Shown: positions 4,184-11,746 of the stretch, piece by piece
How the letters are laid out: each line of letters opens with the position of its first letter
Position numbering within the stretch: position 1 is the first letter of the stretch
Source of the DNA: an uncultured Pseudobdellovibrionaceae bacterium
GTDB lineage: Bacteria > Bdellovibrionota > Bdellovibrionia > Bdellovibrionales > Bdellovibrionaceae
DNA length: 28,063 nt
Direction: 5' to 3'
Assembly: GCA_964390435.1 (NCBI GenBank)
Contig: CAYMKD010000002.1
Coordinates: forward strand, 1 to 28,063
Position numbers and translations under genes: made by a program
The notes under the pieces: generated by a model
Seen by the model: only the letters and a program-made list of their open reading frames with translations
Told to the model about the DNA's origin: nothing
The model's database searches: none

Positions 4184-4383
4184 CTACTGGGCTTCTATTT
4201 CGCGGCAGAGATTTTTAATAAGCCTGTCAATTACCTAAATCATTAAATTATATAGAATTAATATTTTGCGTACTAAAAATGGGTGCTTCTCCTTTGTACA
4301 AGGGGCGCCATTACACAGATATCGCTTGCTTTTTACGGCTTTCAGAATCAAATTTAGTGTCTTTTGATGCGGGGGAAAGCACC

Positions 4384-5832
4384 ATGAAATGTGACAATTT
4401 TATTGAAGGACGATGGCAGGCTGGCCAATCCGGAACACATGATATTCACTCTCCTCATAATGGAAAAAAGTTAGGTTCCTACAGTGTTCCCTCTGTGTCA
4501 CAAATAGATCAAGCCATCAAAGCCGCCGCTGTTGCTCAAAAAGAATGGGCGCTTTTGACAATGAAGGATCGTGGTAAAGTATTATTTAATTTTCGTAATA
4601 TTCTTTTACGTGAGCAAGATGCAATTGCTCGTTTAAAAAGTTCTGAATGTGGCAAAACCTTTGATGAAGCCAAAGCAGGTCTCATGAAGGGGATTGAAGT
4701 TTTAGAGTTTGCACTTTCAATTCAAAATTTAGATTTAGGCGGACGTGTTGAGGTTTCTCGCGGCGTAAGTTGTGAGTATCGCAGAGAGCCCTTAGGTGTT
4801 GTGGCTAATATAACTCCATTTAATTTTCCCGCAATGGTGCCCATGTGGACTATTCCCATTGCACTTGCTTTAGGCAATGCTTATGTGTGGAAGCCTTCTG
4901 ATAAAACACCACTCACTGCTTATAAAATTGCTGAAGCACTTTCTGAAGCGGGCTTACCAGCTGGAGTATTTACCGTTCTTCATGGCAACTCAGATACAGT
5001 GAATGCCATTATTGATCATCCTTTAGTTAAAGCCATTGGCTTTGTGGGCTCAACAAAAGTTGCAAAATTAGTATATCAAAGAGGAACTTCGCTAGGTAAA
5101 CGAGTGCTTGCACTTGGTGGAGCTAAAAATCACATTGTTCTTTTACCGGATGCAAACCCTGAACTCAGTGGCGTTGGGATTTCAGATTCATTCACAGGTT
5201 GTGCAGGGCAAAGATGTATGGCCGCTTCTGTTTTATTAGCTGTGGGCGATGTAAATCATCATATCGAAAAAATCGTGCAAAGAGCCTCTTCGCTTAAGCT
5301 CGGTGAACAAATGGGAGCAATGATTACTACAGAGCAAATTGAATTTTTAAATCAAGCAATTGCGCGAGCTGAAAAAGCAGGAGCTAAAATTCTCTTAGAT
5401 GGTCGCAAAGTAAAAGCCCCGCAAGGGATGGAAGAAGGTCACTGGCTTGGGCCAACTATTTTGGATCATGTTAAGTCTGGTTCAGAAGCAGCAACTATAG
5501 AACTCTTTGGTCCGATTTTAAGTGTAGTTCGTTGCAAAGACCTTTCTGAAGCCATGCAAATAGAAAATAGTGTTGAGTATGGTAATGCTTGCAGTGTGTT
5601 TACTTCAAGTGGTCCACTTGCTGATCGTGTGGTTCGTGAAGCTTCAACGGGAATGGTTGGAGTTAATGTCGGAGTGCCAGTGCCACGTGAGCCATTTTCT
5701 TTTGGCGGAATTAATGCCTCTAAGTTTGGTCACGGAGATATTACGGGTCACCATAGTCTTGATTTTTGGTCTGATATTAAAAAAGTAACAACGAAATGGG
5801 AAAAGCAAGACGACTCAAATTGGATGTCTTAA
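4384..5832 (+). CDS. mmsA: CoA-acylating (methyl)malonate-semialdehyde dehydrogenase (MMSDH, ALDH6 family), 482 aa
   Basis: ITPFNFPAMVPMW, KPS, FVGST, ALGGAKNH, catalytic-Cys motif GCAGQRCMA, ELFGP, FSFGG...SKFG. Start refined from 4279 to ATG 4384 (GGGGGA SD at 4371-4376). Confidence 0.93.
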   Translation: MKCDNFIEGRWQAGQSGTHDIHSPHNGKKLGSYSVPSVSQIDQAIKAAAVAQKEWALLTMKDRGKVLFNFRNILLREQDAIARLKSSECGKTFDEAKAGLMKGIEVLEFALSIQNLDLGGRVEVSRGVSCEYRREPLGVVANITPFNFPAMVPMWTIPIALALGNAYVWKPSDKTPLTAYKIAEALSEAGLPAGVFTVLHGNSDTVNAIIDHPLVKAIGFVGSTKVAKLVYQRGTSLGKRVLALGGAKNHIVLLPDANPELSGVGISDSFTGCAGQRCMAASVLLAVGDVNHHIEKIVQRASSLKLGEQMGAMITTEQIEFLNQAIARAEKAGAKILLDGRKVKAPQGMEEGHWLGPTILDHVKSGSEAATIELFGPILSVVRCKDLSEAMQIENSVEYGNACSVFTSSGPLADRVVREASTGMVGVNVGVPVPREPFSFGGINASKFGHGDITGHHSLDFWSDIKKVTTKWEKQDDSNWMS

Positions 5833-5857
5833 TTTAAAAAATCTTATAGAGGGATTT

Positions 5858-7120
5858 ATGATAAAAGCAAAAAAAAGTTCTAATCATATTATTTTGGCTT
5901 CACATGCTAATTTAAAATACAAAGAAACTCTGCCAATTAAATGGGGAGCTCGTACAGCCATGGAGCGCGGTCCTGTAGTGGCTTCAGTTACAGATTCAAA
6001 ATCTCGCAATGCTATTGGCGCTCACAGTGGAAGCTACACTGTTTACCGTGCGCTTTCTATTGCCAGTGGGAAGTTTCCAACACTTCATCGCCCAGATTTG
6101 CATAATACAGAAAGTCCTGTAGCTATTGGGCCTTATGAAAGCTGGTTTAATCCCACAAAAATAGTTTCTATTGATCCTTGGGGTTTAGACCCACAAGTTC
6201 ATTTTAAACCCTTGTTTGATAAGGGTTATGATATTCGCCCTTCGATTGCAGTCACTCAAGCTCACTTGCAAATTCCTGAAATTGACAATGCTATTTCTTT
6301 AGGGCGACTTAAAATTGATGGAAAGATTATTAAAGAAAATAAAGATGTTCGCGTAACTAAAGTTGCTTTTGAGCCTGTTTGGTACTTACCAGGAATAGCT
6401 GAAAGATTAAATATTGCTGAAGGGGATTTACGCCGTATTCTCTTTCAAGAAACAGGTGGGATGTATCCTGAATTTATCACGCGTCCTGATTTAAAAGCAT
6501 GGTTGCCACCCATTGGCAGTACCACAGCATATATTTTTGGTAACCCCAAAGATCTTGCAACTTCTAAGGTTGAACTCACTTGTCGTGTGCATGATGAGTG
6601 TAATGGCTCAGACGTTTTTGGTTCTGATATTTGCACCTGTCGACCTTATTTAATGTATGGAATTGAAGATGCAGCTCGCACAGCACAAAGAGGTGGCGTG
6701 GGTATTATTGTTTATTACCGTAAAGAAGGTCGTGCTCTTGGTGAAGTTACAAAATTCTTGGTTTATAATGCCAGAAAGCGCCAAGAAGGTGGCGATACAG
6801 CAGCAACTTACTTTCATCGCACAGAGTGTGTTGCCGGGACCGAGGATGCCAGATTTCAAGAGTTTATGCCAGATTGTCTGCATTTCTTTGGAATTAAAAA
6901 AATTCATAATCTTCATTCAATGAGTAATATGAAGTATGACGCAATTGTAGGCAGTGGTATCGAAGTTGTGAATCGTATTTCTATCCCAGATGATTTAATT
7001 CCTCATGATGCCAAAGTAGAAATGGAAGCTAAAAAAGCTGCAGGATACTTTAGCAAAGAACCACAAAAATCAAAAGATGATTTAAAGAAAGTAAAAGGAC
7101 GGGCCATTGTCGATGAGTAA
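5858..7120 (+). CDS. urc1: GTP cyclohydrolase II-like protein with N-terminal extension (Urc1-type; probably not riboflavin RibA), 420 aa
   Basis: RVHDECNGSDVFGSDICTCRPYL (three Zn cysteines), KEGRALG and EDAR (catalytic Arg position). About 240-aa N-terminal region (IGAHSGSY, KIVSIDPWG, IRPSIAVT, GGMYPE) of the GTP_CH_N type seen in fungal URC1. No rib genes nearby. Confidence 0.88.
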   Translation: MIKAKKSSNHIILASHANLKYKETLPIKWGARTAMERGPVVASVTDSKSRNAIGAHSGSYTVYRALSIASGKFPTLHRPDLHNTESPVAIGPYESWFNPTKIVSIDPWGLDPQVHFKPLFDKGYDIRPSIAVTQAHLQIPEIDNAISLGRLKIDGKIIKENKDVRVTKVAFEPVWYLPGIAERLNIAEGDLRRILFQETGGMYPEFITRPDLKAWLPPIGSTTAYIFGNPKDLATSKVELTCRVHDECNGSDVFGSDICTCRPYLMYGIEDAARTAQRGGVGIIVYYRKEGRALGEVTKFLVYNARKRQEGGDTAATYFHRTECVAGTEDARFQEFMPDCLHFFGIKKIHNLHSMSNMKYDAIVGSGIEVVNRISIPDDLIPHDAKVEMEAKKAAGYFSKEPQKSKDDLKKVKGRAIVDE

Positions 7121-8339
7121 GCTTAATCTTTCAACGGCTGAGATCGATTACCTGCTTTCACCTAAAGCTATTAGAGATAAAGCTGAGCAAATATTTAATC
7201 TGACAACAAAAGGTCAAACAGCTTTTTGTTATCACCCAGAAAAGCTTAAACCCACAGTGGATTATGTGCTTGATGTGATACAAAAAAAATATCCAGATTT
7301 AAATATCCCCTTTCATTCTCGTTGGGGTCATTTTCAAGTGGGCAATATTGACCGTGTGAATAAACTCAATCAAATGCTCGCAAAATTTGATCCTTTAGAG
7401 CGCGCACGAATCAAATTAGATCTCGTGATCACTTCTGTTTTATTAGATGCTGGTGCAGGGGCTCGCTGGAGTTTTTTTGAAGAGTCTGAGGCTAAATCAT
7501 TTTCGCGCTCTGAGGGCTTAGGAGTCGCAAGTTATTATATGTTTTTGTCAGGTATTATGAGCAATGATCACAAATCTTCGTGTGCCGAGAGTGAAGCTCT
7601 AAAGAAAATCACCACAAAGGATTTAGAAAAATATTTTCAAGTGAGTGAAAAAAATCCTTTAGTGGGCGTTGAAGGCCGCGTGAAGTTACTCAATAATTTA
7701 GGCACAGCCGTGGAGAACAAAAAAATATTTCCCCTTGGACGTCCGGGGAGCATAATTGATTCACTTAAAGAGCGCTTTGGAAACACTATCCCTGCTCCGC
7801 AAATTTTACGCATGGTTTTAGATGGTTTAGGTTCTATTTGGCCAGGTCGTCTTGAGGCCCAAGGAGTGAATCTTGGTGATGTGTGGAAGTATTCAAAGTT
7901 ACAATCCTCTCAAGAGCTAGATTCTTTGGTTCCTTTGCATAAGCTATCACAATGGATGACGTACTCACTAATTGAGCCCATTGTTGAGGCTGGGTTTAAG
8001 GTGACGGGAGTTGAAGATCTTACCGGCCTTGCGGAGTATCGAAATGGTGGCCTCTTAATTGATTCTGGTCTATTAAGTTTACGCAATCCAGAGGATTTAA
8101 CTAAGAGTTGGGAGCCTAGCTCAGATTTAATTATTGAGTGGCGAGCTTTAACAGTGTATTTGCTCGATCAAATTGGGGCTCAAGTGCAAGCGGCTATTAA
8201 AAAAACTCCTGAAGAGTTCCCTCTTGCAAAAGTGTTAGAGGGTGGAACTTGGTGGGCTGGGCGATTTATTGCAAAAGAAAAGCGTCCTGCAGATGGTGAG
8301 CCGCCGCTACAAATTAAAAGTGATGGAACAGTTTTTTAA
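7113..8339 (+). CDS. urc4: URC4/Urg3 family protein (DUF1688), about 408 aa
   Basis: IPFHSRWGHF, SVLLDAGAG..W, RSEGLGVAS, HKLSQWMTYSLIEP, LTGLAEYRNGGLLID, EWRALTV, KVLEGGTW and terminal SDGTVF. Start is ATG 7113 or TTG 7107; it overlaps the upstream stop. Confidence 0.9.
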   Translation: MSKLNLSTAEIDYLLSPKAIRDKAEQIFNLTTKGQTAFCYHPEKLKPTVDYVLDVIQKKYPDLNIPFHSRWGHFQVGNIDRVNKLNQMLAKFDPLERARIKLDLVITSVLLDAGAGARWSFFEESEAKSFSRSEGLGVASYYMFLSGIMSNDHKSSCAESEALKKITTKDLEKYFQVSEKNPLVGVEGRVKLLNNLGTAVENKKIFPLGRPGSIIDSLKERFGNTIPAPQILRMVLDGLGSIWPGRLEAQGVNLGDVWKYSKLQSSQELDSLVPLHKLSQWMTYSLIEPIVEAGFKVTGVEDLTGLAEYRNGGLLIDSGLLSLRNPEDLTKSWEPSSDLIIEWRALTVYLLDQIGAQVQAAIKKTPEEFPLAKVLEGGTWWAGRFIAKEKRPADGEPPLQIKSDGTVF

Positions 8340-8348
8340 GAGGTGAAA

Positions 8349-8984
8349 ATGGAAAAAGGTAAAGTTTTAGTACTCTCGCACCCTTTACTTAAACATAAAC
8401 TTGGGTACTTGCGTGATAAAAACACAAGTTCAGCTGAGTTTCGTGAACTAGTTAAAGAGATCAGCCGTATTCTTGCTCACGAAGTAATGCGTGATTGGCA
8501 GGATATGAAAACTGTGGATATTGAAACACCAATTGCTAAAGCAACGGTGGACCGAATTCAAAATGCTCCGGTTGTTGTCTCAATTTTAAGAGCAGGCAGT
8601 GGAATGCTTGATCCTGTGCTCTCCATGATTCCATTTGCAGCTGCGGGCTTTATTGGTATTTACCGTGATCGTTTTATTAATAACACGGTTGAGTATTATT
8701 TTAAGATGCCAGCAGACATAAAAGGGAAAATGGCCATTTTGTGTGATCCGTTGGTGGCGACCGCAGATACGATGATCGCAGCCATTGAGCGTCTTAAAAG
8801 TTATGAAGTTAAGCAAATTAAAGTTCTTAGTATATTAGTTAGTCAAAACGCCATAGATCGAATTCATGAAAGTCATCCTGATGTAGATATTTATACATTA
8901 AATATTGAGAATGAAGTTAATGAGCACGGTTACCTCGTGCCTGGTCTTGGAGATGCCGGTGACCGACTATACCAAACAAAATAA
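8349..8984 (+). CDS. upp: Uracil phosphoribosyltransferase, 211 aa
   Basis: HPLLKHKLGYLRD..T....FRELV.E, SILRAG.GM, GIYRD, GYLVPGLGDAGDR. PRPP loop is atypical (DPLVATADT). SD GAGG, then ATG at 8349 (track starts at GTG 8343). Confidence 0.92.
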   Translation: MEKGKVLVLSHPLLKHKLGYLRDKNTSSAEFRELVKEISRILAHEVMRDWQDMKTVDIETPIAKATVDRIQNAPVVVSILRAGSGMLDPVLSMIPFAAAGFIGIYRDRFINNTVEYYFKMPADIKGKMAILCDPLVATADTMIAAIERLKSYEVKQIKVLSILVSQNAIDRIHESHPDVDIYTLNIENEVNEHGYLVPGLGDAGDRLYQTK

Positions 8985-9612
8985 CAAAAGCCCTTATCTC
9001 ATTGGCGTTGCTGGTGGGAGTGGTTCGGGCAAAACTTATTTTGCAAAAGCTTTAATGAACAACTTAGGGCTTAATTTCTGCTCTATTGTTTATCAAGATA
9101 GTTTTTATATTGATCAATCTCATCGTTTTGACTTTGATGGTGGATCAGTTAATTTTGATCATCCAAGTAGTATTGATTTTAGTTTTTTAGGCCGTTGCTT
9201 AGCGCAGCTTAAGCAGGGCCAAGCCACAGAAATTCCTATCTACGACTTTGTTACACATAAAAGAAAACCTGAAACTGTGAGCTTGCAACCAAAACCTATT
9301 ATTATTGTCGATGGAATTTTAATTTTTAATGCTCCTGAGGTTCGCTGTCATTTAGATGATCTTGTTTTTTTTGATACTCCAGAAGAGCTTCGTTATCAAA
9401 GACGCCTTGAACGCGACGTTAAAGAGCGAGGCCGTACACCCGATGGAGTGAGGGCCCAGTTTCTTCAGCAAGTTAAGCCTATGCACGATCAGTTTGTTGA
9501 ACCTTCAAAAACTCATGCTCATACCATTGTTTCAGAACTCAATGATTATGACAGAGTTTTAAAAGATTACTCTGCAAGATGTGCTAAGAAGTGTGCTGGT
9601 ATAAAATTTTAA
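8959..9612 (+). CDS. udk: Uridine kinase (uridine-cytidine kinase), 217 aa
   Basis: IGVAGGSGSGKT P-loop, QDSFY, NFDHP, YDFVTHKR, IIVDGIL, RRLERDVKERGRT, VKPMHDQFVEPSK. GTG at 8959 lies 6 nt after GGAG (8949-8952) and gives a 26-nt overlap with upp. The track's 8905 start is too long. Confidence 0.93.
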   Translation: MTDYTKQNNKSPYLIGVAGGSGSGKTYFAKALMNNLGLNFCSIVYQDSFYIDQSHRFDFDGGSVNFDHPSSIDFSFLGRCLAQLKQGQATEIPIYDFVTHKRKPETVSLQPKPIIIVDGILIFNAPEVRCHLDDLVFFDTPEELRYQRRLERDVKERGRTPDGVRAQFLQQVKPMHDQFVEPSKTHAHTIVSELNDYDRVLKDYSARCAKKCAGIKF

Positions 9613-9616
9613 GGTC

Positions 9617-10894
9617 TTAGTAAAATTTTGCCCTAGTTCCTAATTGATCTTTTAGAAGCTGCATAGTTTCTTTTGAAAAATTATTTTCTTTTAAAAATAC
9701 AACAGCATTTGAAGAAAACACCTGAGGGTGAAAAACTTCCTCTGAGAGATCTACCAAGTTATTGCTATACAAGTAGAGAGTCTTTAAAGTCACCAGACCA
9801 TGAAAAGTTTTGTTGCTAATATGGCTGAGCCTGTTCTTACTAAGTTGTAGCCACCAAAGAGATGATAAATCAAAAAAGATACTTTCTGGCAGCTCAGTAA
9901 ATTTATTAGAGTGTAGAGATAAAGATTCGAGCTTTCTAAGGCCTTTAAACAAGTCCTCTGGCAGTTGCGTTAGTTTATTTTCTTCAAGGCTAATTTCTTT
10001 TAATTTAATTAAATTGCGAAATAACTCTTCATGGACTTCCGTAAGTTGATTTCTACTTAAATCAATTCTTTCTAACAAATAAGAATCTCTAAAAAAGTTT
10101 TCAGGTAAAGAGCTCAATTGTAAATCTGAGAGGCTAATATTTTTTAATGATTTAAGACCCACTAAAAAATCTTTTGGTAGGGACCCCAAGTGATTTCCGC
10201 TAAGACTTAAGGATACTAAGCTGGGTAAATATTGAGCTGATAAAGTCTTTGGAAGATAAGTGAGTTTGTTATAGAACAGCATAAGATAACTTAAACTTGG
10301 CAAGGAGCCAAAAACTTCATCTGGAAGTTGATTTAAATTATTCTCATAGAGTAGAAGTGAGTGCAAAGATTTAAGATCTTTAAAAGCACTTCCAGAAATT
10401 TCAACAAGTTGATTTTTTGCGAGATTTAATCTCTCTAGTGCAAAGAGATTTTGAAAAGTTTTATTTGAAATGTGAGAAATACTATTTTGCGACAAATCAA
10501 GCTCTTGTAAAGAGATTAAGTCATTAAAGATTCCATCAGGCAGATTAGTTAATCGATTCCCAAAAAGATATAAACGTTTTAAGTTGTTTAAGCCCTTAAA
10601 TAAATTTTCAGGCAGCTCTGTAAGCTGATTTTGAAATAATGAGATGACCTCTACATTTACAAGTCCCTGAAAGTCACTATCCTCAAGAGAGGAGATTCCT
10701 AGCATACCAAGTTGAAGAAAATCGATCTTTGCAAGATCTTGCTCGGTAATGTCAGCACAAGGCTTTTTTGTTTGTTCAACTAAGGCATCCCGCACAGCAG
10801 ATGTGCGAAGACAAACATCTTTTACCAAAGCATTTGCTGAAAAAGACAAGATCATCGTGCTAAAAAATAAATTTAAAGCAATAAATTTACTCAT
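9617..10894 (-). CDS. Secreted leucine-rich-repeat protein (about 14 typical 24-aa LRRs), 425 aa
   Basis: SD AAGGAGG then MSKFIALNLFFSTMILSFSANA signal peptide (start refined from 10948). Cys-containing N-cap (VCLRT...KPC) and repeats of LxxLxLxxNxLxxLPxxxFxx. Confidence 0.92.
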   Translation of the reverse strand: MSKFIALNLFFSTMILSFSANALVKDVCLRTSAVRDALVEQTKKPCADITEQDLAKIDFLQLGMLGISSLEDSDFQGLVNVEVISLFQNQLTELPENLFKGLNNLKRLYLFGNRLTNLPDGIFNDLISLQELDLSQNSISHISNKTFQNLFALERLNLAKNQLVEISGSAFKDLKSLHSLLLYENNLNQLPDEVFGSLPSLSYLMLFYNKLTYLPKTLSAQYLPSLVSLSLSGNHLGSLPKDFLVGLKSLKNISLSDLQLSSLPENFFRDSYLLERIDLSRNQLTEVHEELFRNLIKLKEISLEENKLTQLPEDLFKGLRKLESLSLHSNKFTELPESIFFDLSSLWWLQLSKNRLSHISNKTFHGLVTLKTLYLYSNNLVDLSEEVFHPQVFSSNAVVFLKENNFSKETMQLLKDQLGTRAKFY

Positions 10895-10975
10895 ATTTCC
10901 TCCTTGATATAGAGTTAAACTGTATTGATTCATACAGCTTATTGTCAAAGAGAATCTAGTTTGTGTATTTCTTAG

Positions 10976-11017: not shown

Positions 11018-11746
11018 TTATAATCGAATAGTAGGAACGAGGCTTTTTACTCGCTTTTTATAATTTAAATAACTATCGCCCCACTGCGTAATAAGAGACT
11101 TTTCTTCAAGTGAAACACCAAAAATTATGTAAGCAGTTACAATAAGATTAAACATAAGATGATCCATTCTCATTACAGGTGTTGACCAACTTCCAATCAG
11201 AGAGCCTGTCATTAGTGGATGGCGGTCAAATTTATACATAAGACGTTCAACAAAAGGAACTTTAGCAGAGGTTTTGTTTCTAAAATAATTAAAAGTCTGC
11301 TGTAGTCCAAAGAGTTCAAAATGGTTAATCGCAAAACTTGCTGCAAATAAATAAATCCAGCCAAATACAGCAAAGCCAATCATTAATTTATAAATTAGGG
11401 GGCTACTAATTTCCCAAATGATTTCATTGTTATAAGGCCAAAAAATAAGAACGCCCCATAAAACAATTCCAGTTAATAATACAAATAAAGAGCGTTCTGC
11501 AGCTGCAGGAATAATTTTACTAATCTTAGCTTTAAAATTAGATCTAGCCATAATTGTGTGCTGAAGTGCAAAAATACTCATAAGAAAAAGGCCGATAGCT
11601 ATTTGAGTGCCAAGACTATTTGGGTAATGAATTGGTCCGGCTTCAAATGGCATAACTCTTAACATTGTAAGAATCCATCCAACAAGTGCAGAAACACCAA
11701 TTAAATAGCTAACCACTCCAAATACAAAAACACTCAGATTTTTCAC
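11018..11746 (-). CDS. mddA: MddA-like methanethiol S-methyltransferase / isoprenylcysteine carboxyl methyltransferase family membrane protein, 242 aa
   Basis: FALQHTIMAR..FK, ERSLFVL, FAINHFELFGLQQ, RHPLMTG, W.TP.M..DHL.F, TAYI..G..LEEK.L...GDSY..YK..V. Multiple TM helices; SD AAGGAGG then GTG. The family is confident; the exact substrate is inferred. Confidence 0.75.
   Translation of the reverse strand: MKNLSVFVFGVVSYLIGVSALVGWILTMLRVMPFEAGPIHYPNSLGTQIAIGLFLMSIFALQHTIMARSNFKAKISKIIPAAAERSLFVLLTGIVLWGVLIFWPYNNEIIWEISSPLIYKLMIGFAVFGWIYLFAASFAINHFELFGLQQTFNYFRNKTSAKVPFVERLMYKFDRHPLMTGSLIGSWSTPVMRMDHLMFNLIVTAYIIFGVSLEEKSLITQWGDSYLNYKKRVKSLVPTIRL

Follow-up and report, generated by a model that had tools for sequence, protein, structure and literature searches.

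The stretch of DNA considered here, hereafter called the window, spans 28,063 nucleotides (nt) from an uncultured Pseudobdellovibrionaceae bacterium (contig CAYMKD010000002.1 of GenBank assembly GCA_964390435.1, positions 1 to 28,063 of the forward strand). The host genome is a metagenome-assembled genome (MAG) of the Bdellovibrionota (2.87 Mb in 517 contigs, 88% complete). Positions 4384 to 9612 carry a cassette of five genes that we read as an extended form of the URC route of pyrimidine catabolism, which would convert uracil and uridine into urea, ribose phosphate and acetyl-CoA.

The five-gene cassette and its conservation

The open reading frame (ORF) listing of the window gives five ORFs on the same strand (+), from 4279/4384 to 9612. 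The first encodes a URC-linked aldehyde dehydrogenase of 482 residues resembling methylmalonate-semialdehyde dehydrogenase (MMSDH; 4384..5832; PF00171, 417 bits; TIGR01722, 443.2 bits). It is followed by a Urc1/UrcA-type cyclohydrolase of 420 residues (5858..7120; PF12471 and PF00925; NF005536, 713 bits), by the DUF1688 protein Urc4 of 408 residues (7113..8339; PF07958, 488 bits), by the uracil phosphoribosyltransferase (UPRT) Upp of 211 residues (8349..8984; PF14681, 212 bits; TIGR01091, 226 bits for a cut-off of 208) and by the uridine kinase Udk (from ATG 8953 or GTG 8959 to 9612; PF00485, 126 bits; NF004018, 214.5 bits). The start of the dehydrogenase gene, ATG 4384, is preceded by a Shine–Dalgarno sequence, GGGGGA (an alternative in-frame GTG at 4357 is possible), and a gap of 25 nt separates this gene from urc1, whose ATG at 5858 has AGAGGGA upstream. 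The urc1 and urc4 genes overlap by 8 nt (ATGAGTAA, at 7113–7120), the gap of 9 nt between urc4 and the ATG of upp at 8349 contains GAGGTG, and the overlap of upp with udk measures 26 nt with GTG 8959 as the udk start, or 32 nt with the in-frame ATG 8953. A previous reading of this DNA from its letters (the sequence-only reading) had listed five co-oriented genes with spacings of +25, −8, +9 and −26 nt and had named their products as MMSDH-like, GTP-cyclohydrolase-II-like, DUF1688, UPRT and uridine kinase. Our reading of the ORFs and junctions reproduced the former, and Pfam and NCBIfam searches upheld all of the latter.

Homologues of the DUF1688 protein with 66–74% identity are found in MAGs labelled Bdellovibrionales, Pseudobdellovibrionaceae and Pseudobdellovibrio, where NCBI names them ‘URC4/urg3 family protein’; the labels point to the Bdellovibrionota, and the predatory host imagined in the sequence-only reading was apt. 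DUF1688 is present in 13 of 40 relatives from the same family and order. In all 11 of those with enough contig around the gene, which belong to other genera, the order dehydrogenase–urc1–urc4–upp–udk is identical, and the same five-gene order recurs in about 25 further genomes. We then clustered all ORFs of 91 loci: the only families that recur around DUF1688 are Urc4 (86), Urc1 (75), Upp (64), the dehydrogenase (42) and Udk (36), the next most frequent family being found at 9 of the 91 loci. Urc1 adjoins Urc4 in 75 of 86 loci, and at 42 of the 91 loci, from at least four phyla, the dehydrogenase gene immediately precedes urc1. The five-gene arrangement is thus conserved far beyond chance, given the order kept in the 11 relatives and the further genomes and the fact that no other families recur. 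The conservation that had been proposed as a check on the operon was found by the neighbourhood survey.

A wider scan with one genome per species yielded 593 loci or more, and the best 80 were retained for mapping. Among these 80, the full set of five is carried by Bdellovibrio (with three complete genomes among its representatives), by Bacteriovorax and Halobacteriovorax, and by two MAGs of the Acidobacteriota, one from the Holophagaceae and one from the Solibacteraceae. In the same set, a four-gene form with the dehydrogenase gene upstream but lacking udk is found in Myxococcota, and a three-gene core, urc1–urc4–upp, in Cyanobacteria, Alphaproteobacteria and Gammaproteobacteria. The Urc4 tree separates a half of Bdellovibrionota type, with mostly five-gene cassettes, from a half of cyanobacterial and proteobacterial three-gene operons, with 96% support in the Shimodaira–Hasegawa-like approximate likelihood ratio test (SH-aLRT). 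A natural core-only variant is also seen inside the five-gene clade: in a Bdellovibrionota MAG, on a contig of 385 kb, locus L031 (6727–9877) consists of urc1–urc4–upp with neither the upstream dehydrogenase gene nor the downstream udk, its Urc1 being 85% identical to that of the window. Two other loci, L074 (from a MAG labelled Bdellovibrionota) and L097 (from one labelled Pseudomonadota), have near-identical Urc4 and dehydrogenase genes (terminal branches of 0.018 and 0.13), a sign either of conflicting bins or labels or of very recent transfer.

We then looked at how the five genes are inherited in a sample of 41 genomes of the order, including that of the window. DUF1688 is present in 14 of them. 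The MMSDH-like gene is present in 13, each copy lying inside the cassette, and is found in none of the cassette-less genomes of this sample. A high-scoring Upp (about 200 bits) is likewise restricted to DUF1688 genomes and to the cassette, with the exception of one extra copy in a single genome (G026); the cassette-less genomes have nothing better than a weak UPRTase-like paralogue (about 50 bits). A Udk above the cut-off is present in the cassette genomes and in three others. In the genome of the window itself, the cassette holds the sole canonical upp, the sole match to the PRK family (udk) and the sole MMSDH-like gene. These counts show that the cassette is gained and lost as a unit, and this co-inheritance is the strongest evidence here that the five genes work together. 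The weak UPRTase-like paralogue is a distinct protein of 260–290 residues (45–64 bits with the UPRTase profile; loop ATGNT) that many relatives encode, with or without the cassette (for example L117, G009:C1:3025687-3026310), and could be the salvage enzyme of cassette-less genomes.

Predicted roles of the five proteins

Upp and Udk would provide the entry into the pathway by making uridine 5′-monophosphate (UMP), and this part of the sequence-only reading, a pyrimidine-catabolic operon of the URC type fed by both enzymes, is supported by their domains and by their membership of the cassette. The phosphoribosyl pyrophosphate (PRPP) loop of Upp (window 8745–8771) reads DPLVATADT, compared with DPMLATGGS in Escherichia coli. 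This Ala-Asp variant, or Ser-Thr-Ala-Asp, is kept in most Upps of the Bdellovibrionota five-gene cassettes; the loops of other URC-linked Upps are ATGDT, ATGNS/T (Cyanobacteria) and ATANS (Alphaproteobacteria). The conservation of the variant argues against decay of Upp and for a functional enzyme, although not necessarily one of unchanged function.

The Urc1 homologue combines GTP_CH_N (PF12471, 265.8 bits) and GTP cyclohydrolase II (PF00925, 57.4 bits) in one chain of 420 residues. Over its full length (residues 7–416; 558 bits), it aligns with a solved bacterial enzyme of 423 residues from a different source organism, labelled ‘GTP cyclohydrolase II’ (PDB entries 7EJ3 and 7EEV), which we take to be the bacterial uridine 5′-triphosphate (UTP) cyclohydrolase UrcA. 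Classical RibA, on the other hand, matches the C-terminal domain only (E of about 1e-7). The cysteine motif C-X10-C-X-C is the same in the window Urc1 and in 7EJ3/7EEV, and its spacing matches that of the zinc-binding residues in E. coli RibA. Zhang and colleagues are said to have described in 2021 a two-step hydrolysis of UTP. A bacterial UTP cyclohydrolase is named in the literature (Zhang et al., ACS Catal 2021;11:8895, as cited in PMC12507026). We therefore predict that the window Urc1 opens the uracil ring as a UTP cyclohydrolase, and the full-length match to an enzyme of that name would place the entry of the pathway at UTP rather than at UMP. Elsewhere, the host genome encodes the two kinases that would lead from UMP to UTP, namely PyrH (331 bits) and Ndk (188 bits). 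The participation of Urc1 and Urc4 in the same process is independently evidenced by a natural fusion protein of 1031 residues (P0256), in which GTP_CH_N, GTP cyclohydrolase II and DUF1688 are found in a single chain.

The role of Urc4 was approached through its fold. The AlphaFold2 model, built with 36 diverse homologues, has a predicted local distance difference test (pLDDT) score of 95 and a predicted template-modelling (pTM) score of 0.93. A Foldseek search of the PDB with this model returned as its only significant matches 11 chains of Qng1/DUF2419, an enzyme of queuine salvage (probability 1.00, E down to 5.9e-9; template-modelling scores of 0.60–0.64 normalised on the query and 0.74–0.78 normalised on the target), the next match having an E of 0.4. 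Moreover, an hhalign comparison of the DUF1688 profile with a Q_salvage profile, for which family members were collected from a same-phylum copy outward and then aligned, gave a probability of 97.8% and an E of 8.7e-13 over 285 columns. When the DUF1688 profile was run against the sequences of the PDB, no meaningful match came up, so that Qng1 was reached by fold and profile–profile comparison only. Qng1 cleaves the N-glycosidic bond of queuosine 5′-monophosphate by means of an invariant lysine and a nucleophilic aspartate of the helix–hairpin–helix (HhH) motif (K199 and D231 in StQng1; PMC9881137). In the alignment, K277 of DUF1688 (HKLSQW) faces the invariant lysine of the Qng1 family (KRxQ) and E308 (LAEYR) faces its invariant aspartate (FADYR), both being invariant or nearly so across the DUF1688 alignment. 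In yeast, URC4 degrades ribosylurea to urea, according to the account of the yeast work given in PMC7530994. Taken together, the fold and profile match, the alignment of K277 and E308 and this statement on yeast URC4 suggest that Urc4 is most likely a ribosylurea-5′-phosphate N-glycosylase that would yield urea and ribose-5-phosphate.

We read Urc4 as a sister family of Qng1 and not as a member of it, on account of the Asp-to-Glu change and of a score with the Q_salvage family of Pfam (PF10343) of 19.2 bits, under the cut-off of 25. The fold, the profile homology and the presence of a lysine and an acidic residue at the positions of the catalytic pair are common to Urc4 and Qng1 (PDB entries 7U07, 7UGK and 7ULC); however, the two have 14–16% identity, Urc4 is about 80 residues longer and has a glutamate for the aspartate nucleophile, and its leaving group would be urea where that of Qng1 is a 7-deazapurine. 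DUF1688 is widespread (569 clusters at 50% identity, E ≤ 1e-30), and we found no activity assigned to it in the searchable literature. In the sequence-only reading, Urc1 and Urc4 together opened the ring of UMP. The ring-opening role holds for Urc1, given its match to 7EJ3/7EEV, whereas the predicted substrate is UTP and Urc4, in view of Qng1, is most likely not an opener.

The dehydrogenase has its best family and structure matches in MMSDH. Its score of 443.2 bits with TIGR01722 is just under the cut-off of 448.5, the next family being at 281 bits, and its cassette orthologues in relatives score 427–459 bits, six of them above the cut-off. Its ten best PDB matches are all methylmalonate/malonate-semialdehyde dehydrogenases (E down to 1e-106), and the motifs ALGGAKNH and GQRCMA align with ALGGAKNH and GERCMA of the solved enzymes, PFNFP being common to them too. 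In hydrolytic aldehyde dehydrogenases, the position of the GGAKNH segment carries the general-base glutamate. In the window enzyme, an arginine precedes the catalytic cysteine and this segment has no general-base glutamate. The URC-linked enzymes nevertheless stand apart from canonical MMSDHs such as Bacillus subtilis IolA/MmsA and human ALDH6A1, with which they have in common the top family and structure matches and the GGAKNH, RCMA and PFNFP motifs. They score 427–498 bits with TIGR01722, compared with 660–720 bits for canonical mmsA from three alphaproteobacteria, to which they are 38–40% identical, and in an unrooted tree a branch whose SH-aLRT support is 100% separates 40 URC-linked enzymes from 6 canonical ones. 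In addition, 31 positions are group-specific, such as K102 (arginine in canonical enzymes) and Q276 (glutamate in canonical enzymes), the latter beside the catalytic cysteine. From the lower scores, the tree split and these positions, the URC-linked dehydrogenases can be described as a subfamily of their own, sister to canonical MMSDH. The natural prediction is that they form acetyl-CoA from malonate semialdehyde. The sequence-only reading had an MMSDH that makes acetyl-CoA from the C3 fragment: the enzyme is indeed of MMSDH type and suitably placed, but it belongs to a sister subfamily and its activity is a predicted one.

Urea, carbon and the alternatives

We may wonder at this stage what becomes of the urea. 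In an even sample of 201 genomes of the Bdellovibrionota, DUF1688 is found in 73 (40 of 119 genera), whereas the urease alpha subunit, urea carboxylase and RutA are each found in none. Urease and urea carboxylase were likewise not found in the host genome or in five near-complete relatives that carry the cassette, and urease is absent from a complete genome of Bdellovibrio bacteriovorus. By contrast, urease is present in the three-gene hosts that were checked (Prosthecomicrobium, Bosea and Nostoc), and also in Archangium. As none of the known urea-splitting enzymes turned up in this sample of the phylum, the urea is most likely excreted, in which case the gain from prey RNA would consist of carbon, reducing power and ribose phosphate for reuse, and not of nitrogen. 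The sequence-only reading had likewise proposed a carbon and energy role in a predator, which these counts and the Bdellovibrionota host support. A putative second pyrimidine route is seen in the same sample. Dihydropyrimidinase is above the cut-off in 27 genomes, mainly from one family (f17) in which DUF1688 is found in none of 32 genomes. The two sets, of 73 and 27 genomes, have no genome in common, and this includes five dihydropyrimidinase genomes from families where DUF1688 is otherwise common. This exclusion suggests that members of the phylum break down pyrimidines by one or the other of two routes.

The reading that we prefer, with a probability of about 0.7, is that the operon is an extended URC route from uracil and uridine to urea, ribose phosphate and acetyl-CoA that serves carbon and energy rather than nitrogen, each activity and intermediate being one that we infer. 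Upp would convert uracil and PRPP into UMP and Udk would do so from uridine and ATP, after which PyrH and Ndk would raise UMP to UTP. The Urc1-type UTP cyclohydrolase, with its GTP cyclohydrolase II fold, would then hydrolyse the uracil ring, releasing the C4–C5–C6 fragment as malonate semialdehyde and leaving ribosylurea 5′-phosphate, and pyrophosphate release would be expected by analogy with GTP cyclohydrolase II. Urc4 would cut the ribose–urea bond to give urea and ribose-5-phosphate, and the dehydrogenase would convert malonate semialdehyde, CoA and NAD+ into acetyl-CoA, CO2 and NADH.

Several points weigh against this reading. The co-transcription of the five genes is presumed from their spacing alone, the host genome is 88% complete, and the genomes compared are related, so that the samples are not independent and the co-occurrence counts overstate their statistical weight. 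The absence of urease and urea carboxylase is compatible with another urea-using enzyme. At the level of the enzymes, Upp has Ala-Asp in its PRPP loop where most Upps have Gly-Gly or Gly-Asn; the exact products of Urc1 are proposed by analogy with GTP cyclohydrolase II; and Urc4 misses the Q_salvage cut-off and has, at the position of the catalytic aspartate of Qng1, a glutamate, a different residue that still provides a carboxylate. Finally, the dehydrogenase lies just under the MMSDH cut-off, in a clade separate from mmsA at 38–40% identity and with 31 group-specific positions, one of them beside the catalytic cysteine, and neither its substrate nor its CoA dependence is secure.

Among the alternatives, it is unlikely, yet worth considering before the others, that Upp and Udk are ordinary salvage enzymes and that Urc1, Urc4 and the dehydrogenase drain surplus UTP, nutrition being a side effect. 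The cassette upp and udk are the sole copies in the genome and must therefore also serve any salvage, and an action at the level of UTP would suit pool control. However, cassette-less relatives that are 96–100% complete have no canonical upp, which indicates that salvage by Upp is dispensable in the order and that Upp travels with the catabolic genes; moreover, the capture of carbon by a CoA-acylating dehydrogenase fits harvesting better than disposal. The two readings, harvesting and drainage, are not mutually exclusive. We consider it improbable that the cassette scavenges nitrogen, with ammonia obtained from pyrimidine-derived urea and the dehydrogenase merely clearing a toxic aldehyde. This is the role of URC in Lachancea kluyveri, which grows on uracil as sole nitrogen source according to the summary in PMC7530994, and the urease of the checked three-gene hosts would fit it. 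Against it stand the complete lack of urease alpha and urea carboxylase among the 201 genomes, 73 of them with DUF1688, and the fact that both are also missing from the host genome and the five near-complete cassette-bearing relatives; a predator that lives on protein and nucleic acid is, as we reason, also unlikely to be short of nitrogen.

Two further alternatives concern single enzymes of the cassette. The dehydrogenase may have another job, be it the hydrolytic oxidation of malonate semialdehyde to malonate, the handling of methylmalonate semialdehyde from a 5-methylated substrate or that of an unrelated aldehyde. Its position below the MMSDH cut-off and apart from mmsA, its subfamily substitutions and the existence of L031, a close Bdellovibrionota relative with the Urc1–Urc4–Upp core and no dehydrogenase, all leave room for this; but the best matches are by far MMSDH or malonate-semialdehyde dehydrogenase structures, GGAKNH and the Arg-Cys catalytic motif are kept, and the gene, which stands directly upstream of urc1 in 42 of the 91 loci (at least four phyla), occurs in the order only in the cassette, so that we hold such a job to be highly improbable. 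We give even less credence to a Udk-like kinase that would phosphorylate free ribosylurea, instead of or besides uridine, and so return a dephosphorylated intermediate to Urc4. The yeast intermediate is ribosylurea in the summary given in PMC7530994, and Udk scores 187 bits with the older TIGR00235 profile, under its stricter cut-off of 220. Yet it passes NF004018 (214.5 bits for a cut-off of 180), it is the sole candidate for a uridine kinase in the genome, and a udk with an equally high score persists in three relatives that lack the cassette.

Precedents, surroundings and biological meaning

The presumed promoter or leader of the operon is an AT-rich intergenic region of 200 nt upstream of the dehydrogenase gene (4184..4383, + strand), as judged by reading the sequence. 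A scan with consensus promoters gave 25 hits for 21.2 expected, that is, chance level, and we claim no specific promoter; a consensus terminator scan was at chance level too, including two terminator-like matches inside the operon at 7450 and 8105, and an Rfam search of the whole window matched no family. Among sequencing runs, the source metagenome alone contains the window, and no RNA run does. A comparison of 32 loci did not find a cassette-wide operator upstream of the dehydrogenase gene; it did find an element resembling a −35 box of TTGGCA type, limited to one genus. Profile searches showed that the flanking genes are unrelated to pyrimidines and that none of those next to the cassette encodes a regulator, a transporter or an enzyme of urea metabolism. 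The udk stop codon (TAA, 9610–9612) is 4 nt away from that of a convergent gene (9617–10948, − strand) for a leucine-rich repeat protein of 443 residues (LRR_8, 203 bits), whose top NCBIfam match, far under its cut-off, is a Leptospira family of fibronectin-binding leucine-rich repeat proteins. A Leptospira origin of the DNA, which such a match might suggest, is rejected in view of the names of the DUF1688 homologues. Further on, a protein of 242 residues (11018–11746, − strand) matches the methanethiol S-methyltransferase MddA over its full length (196.5 bits for a cut-off of 270).

The core operon, the chemistry of the pathway and its first enzyme have already been described, and all five families are known. 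The C3 aldehyde of the yeast route is reportedly reduced to 3-hydroxypropionate by URC8, a finding attributed to Rasmussen and colleagues in 2014. In the yeast logic, as summarised in PMC7530994, the base is coupled to ribose phosphate before its ring is broken, and the products set free are urea and a C3 unit; urea amidolyase then splits the urea and so provides nitrogen. The window cassette has in common with yeast URC (URC1, URC4, URC6/UPRT, URC8 and URC3,5 in L. kluyveri; urg1–urg2–urg3 in Schizosaccharomyces pombe) a GTP-cyclohydrolase-II-like protein with GTP_CH_N, a DUF1688 protein and a UPRT. It differs from it by an MMSDH-like dehydrogenase in place of the reductase, by a uridine kinase inside the operon and by the fact that no urea-splitting enzyme was found in the 201 Bdellovibrionota genomes. 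The three-gene URC operons of Cyanobacteria, Alphaproteobacteria and Gammaproteobacteria have the same core genes in the same order, with 45–60% protein identity, but lack both the upstream dehydrogenase gene and the downstream udk, belong to the other half of the Urc4 tree and, where checked, have hosts with urease. The additions made here are the counts on co-inheritance, the finding that urease, urea carboxylase and RutA are absent throughout the sample of the phylum, the exclusion between DUF1688 and dihydropyrimidinase, and the split of the dehydrogenase subfamily. In the openly searchable literature, which does not cover the UTP cyclohydrolase paper, we saw neither the five-gene form nor the dehydrogenase subfamily described, and no mention of the lack of urea-splitting enzymes or of the link to Qng1.

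A broader reading that joins these elements seems to us evenly balanced between right and wrong. In it, predatory Bdellovibrionota would have rebuilt the nitrogen-scavenging URC route into a urea-excreting one for carbon and energy, which turns the pyrimidine nucleotides of the prey, by way of UTP, into acetyl-CoA, CO2, ribose-5-phosphate and urea. Within the phylum, this route would stand in for the reductive pathway, with which it shares no genome among the 201. It would employ a dedicated sister subfamily of MMSDH and, as a ribosylurea-5′-phosphate N-glycosylase of the Qng1/HhH-glycosylase superfamily, Urc4. If this is true, the widespread DUF1688/Urc4 family would receive its first assigned chemistry, a concrete reaction that can be tested. 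A single ring-opening chemistry would then have two uses, namely nitrogen in hosts with urease, and carbon and energy where an acetyl-CoA-forming dehydrogenase is present and urease is not. This would explain how Bdellovibrio-like predators gain from the pyrimidines of prey RNA, and the prediction would be that predation releases urea as a final, excreted product.

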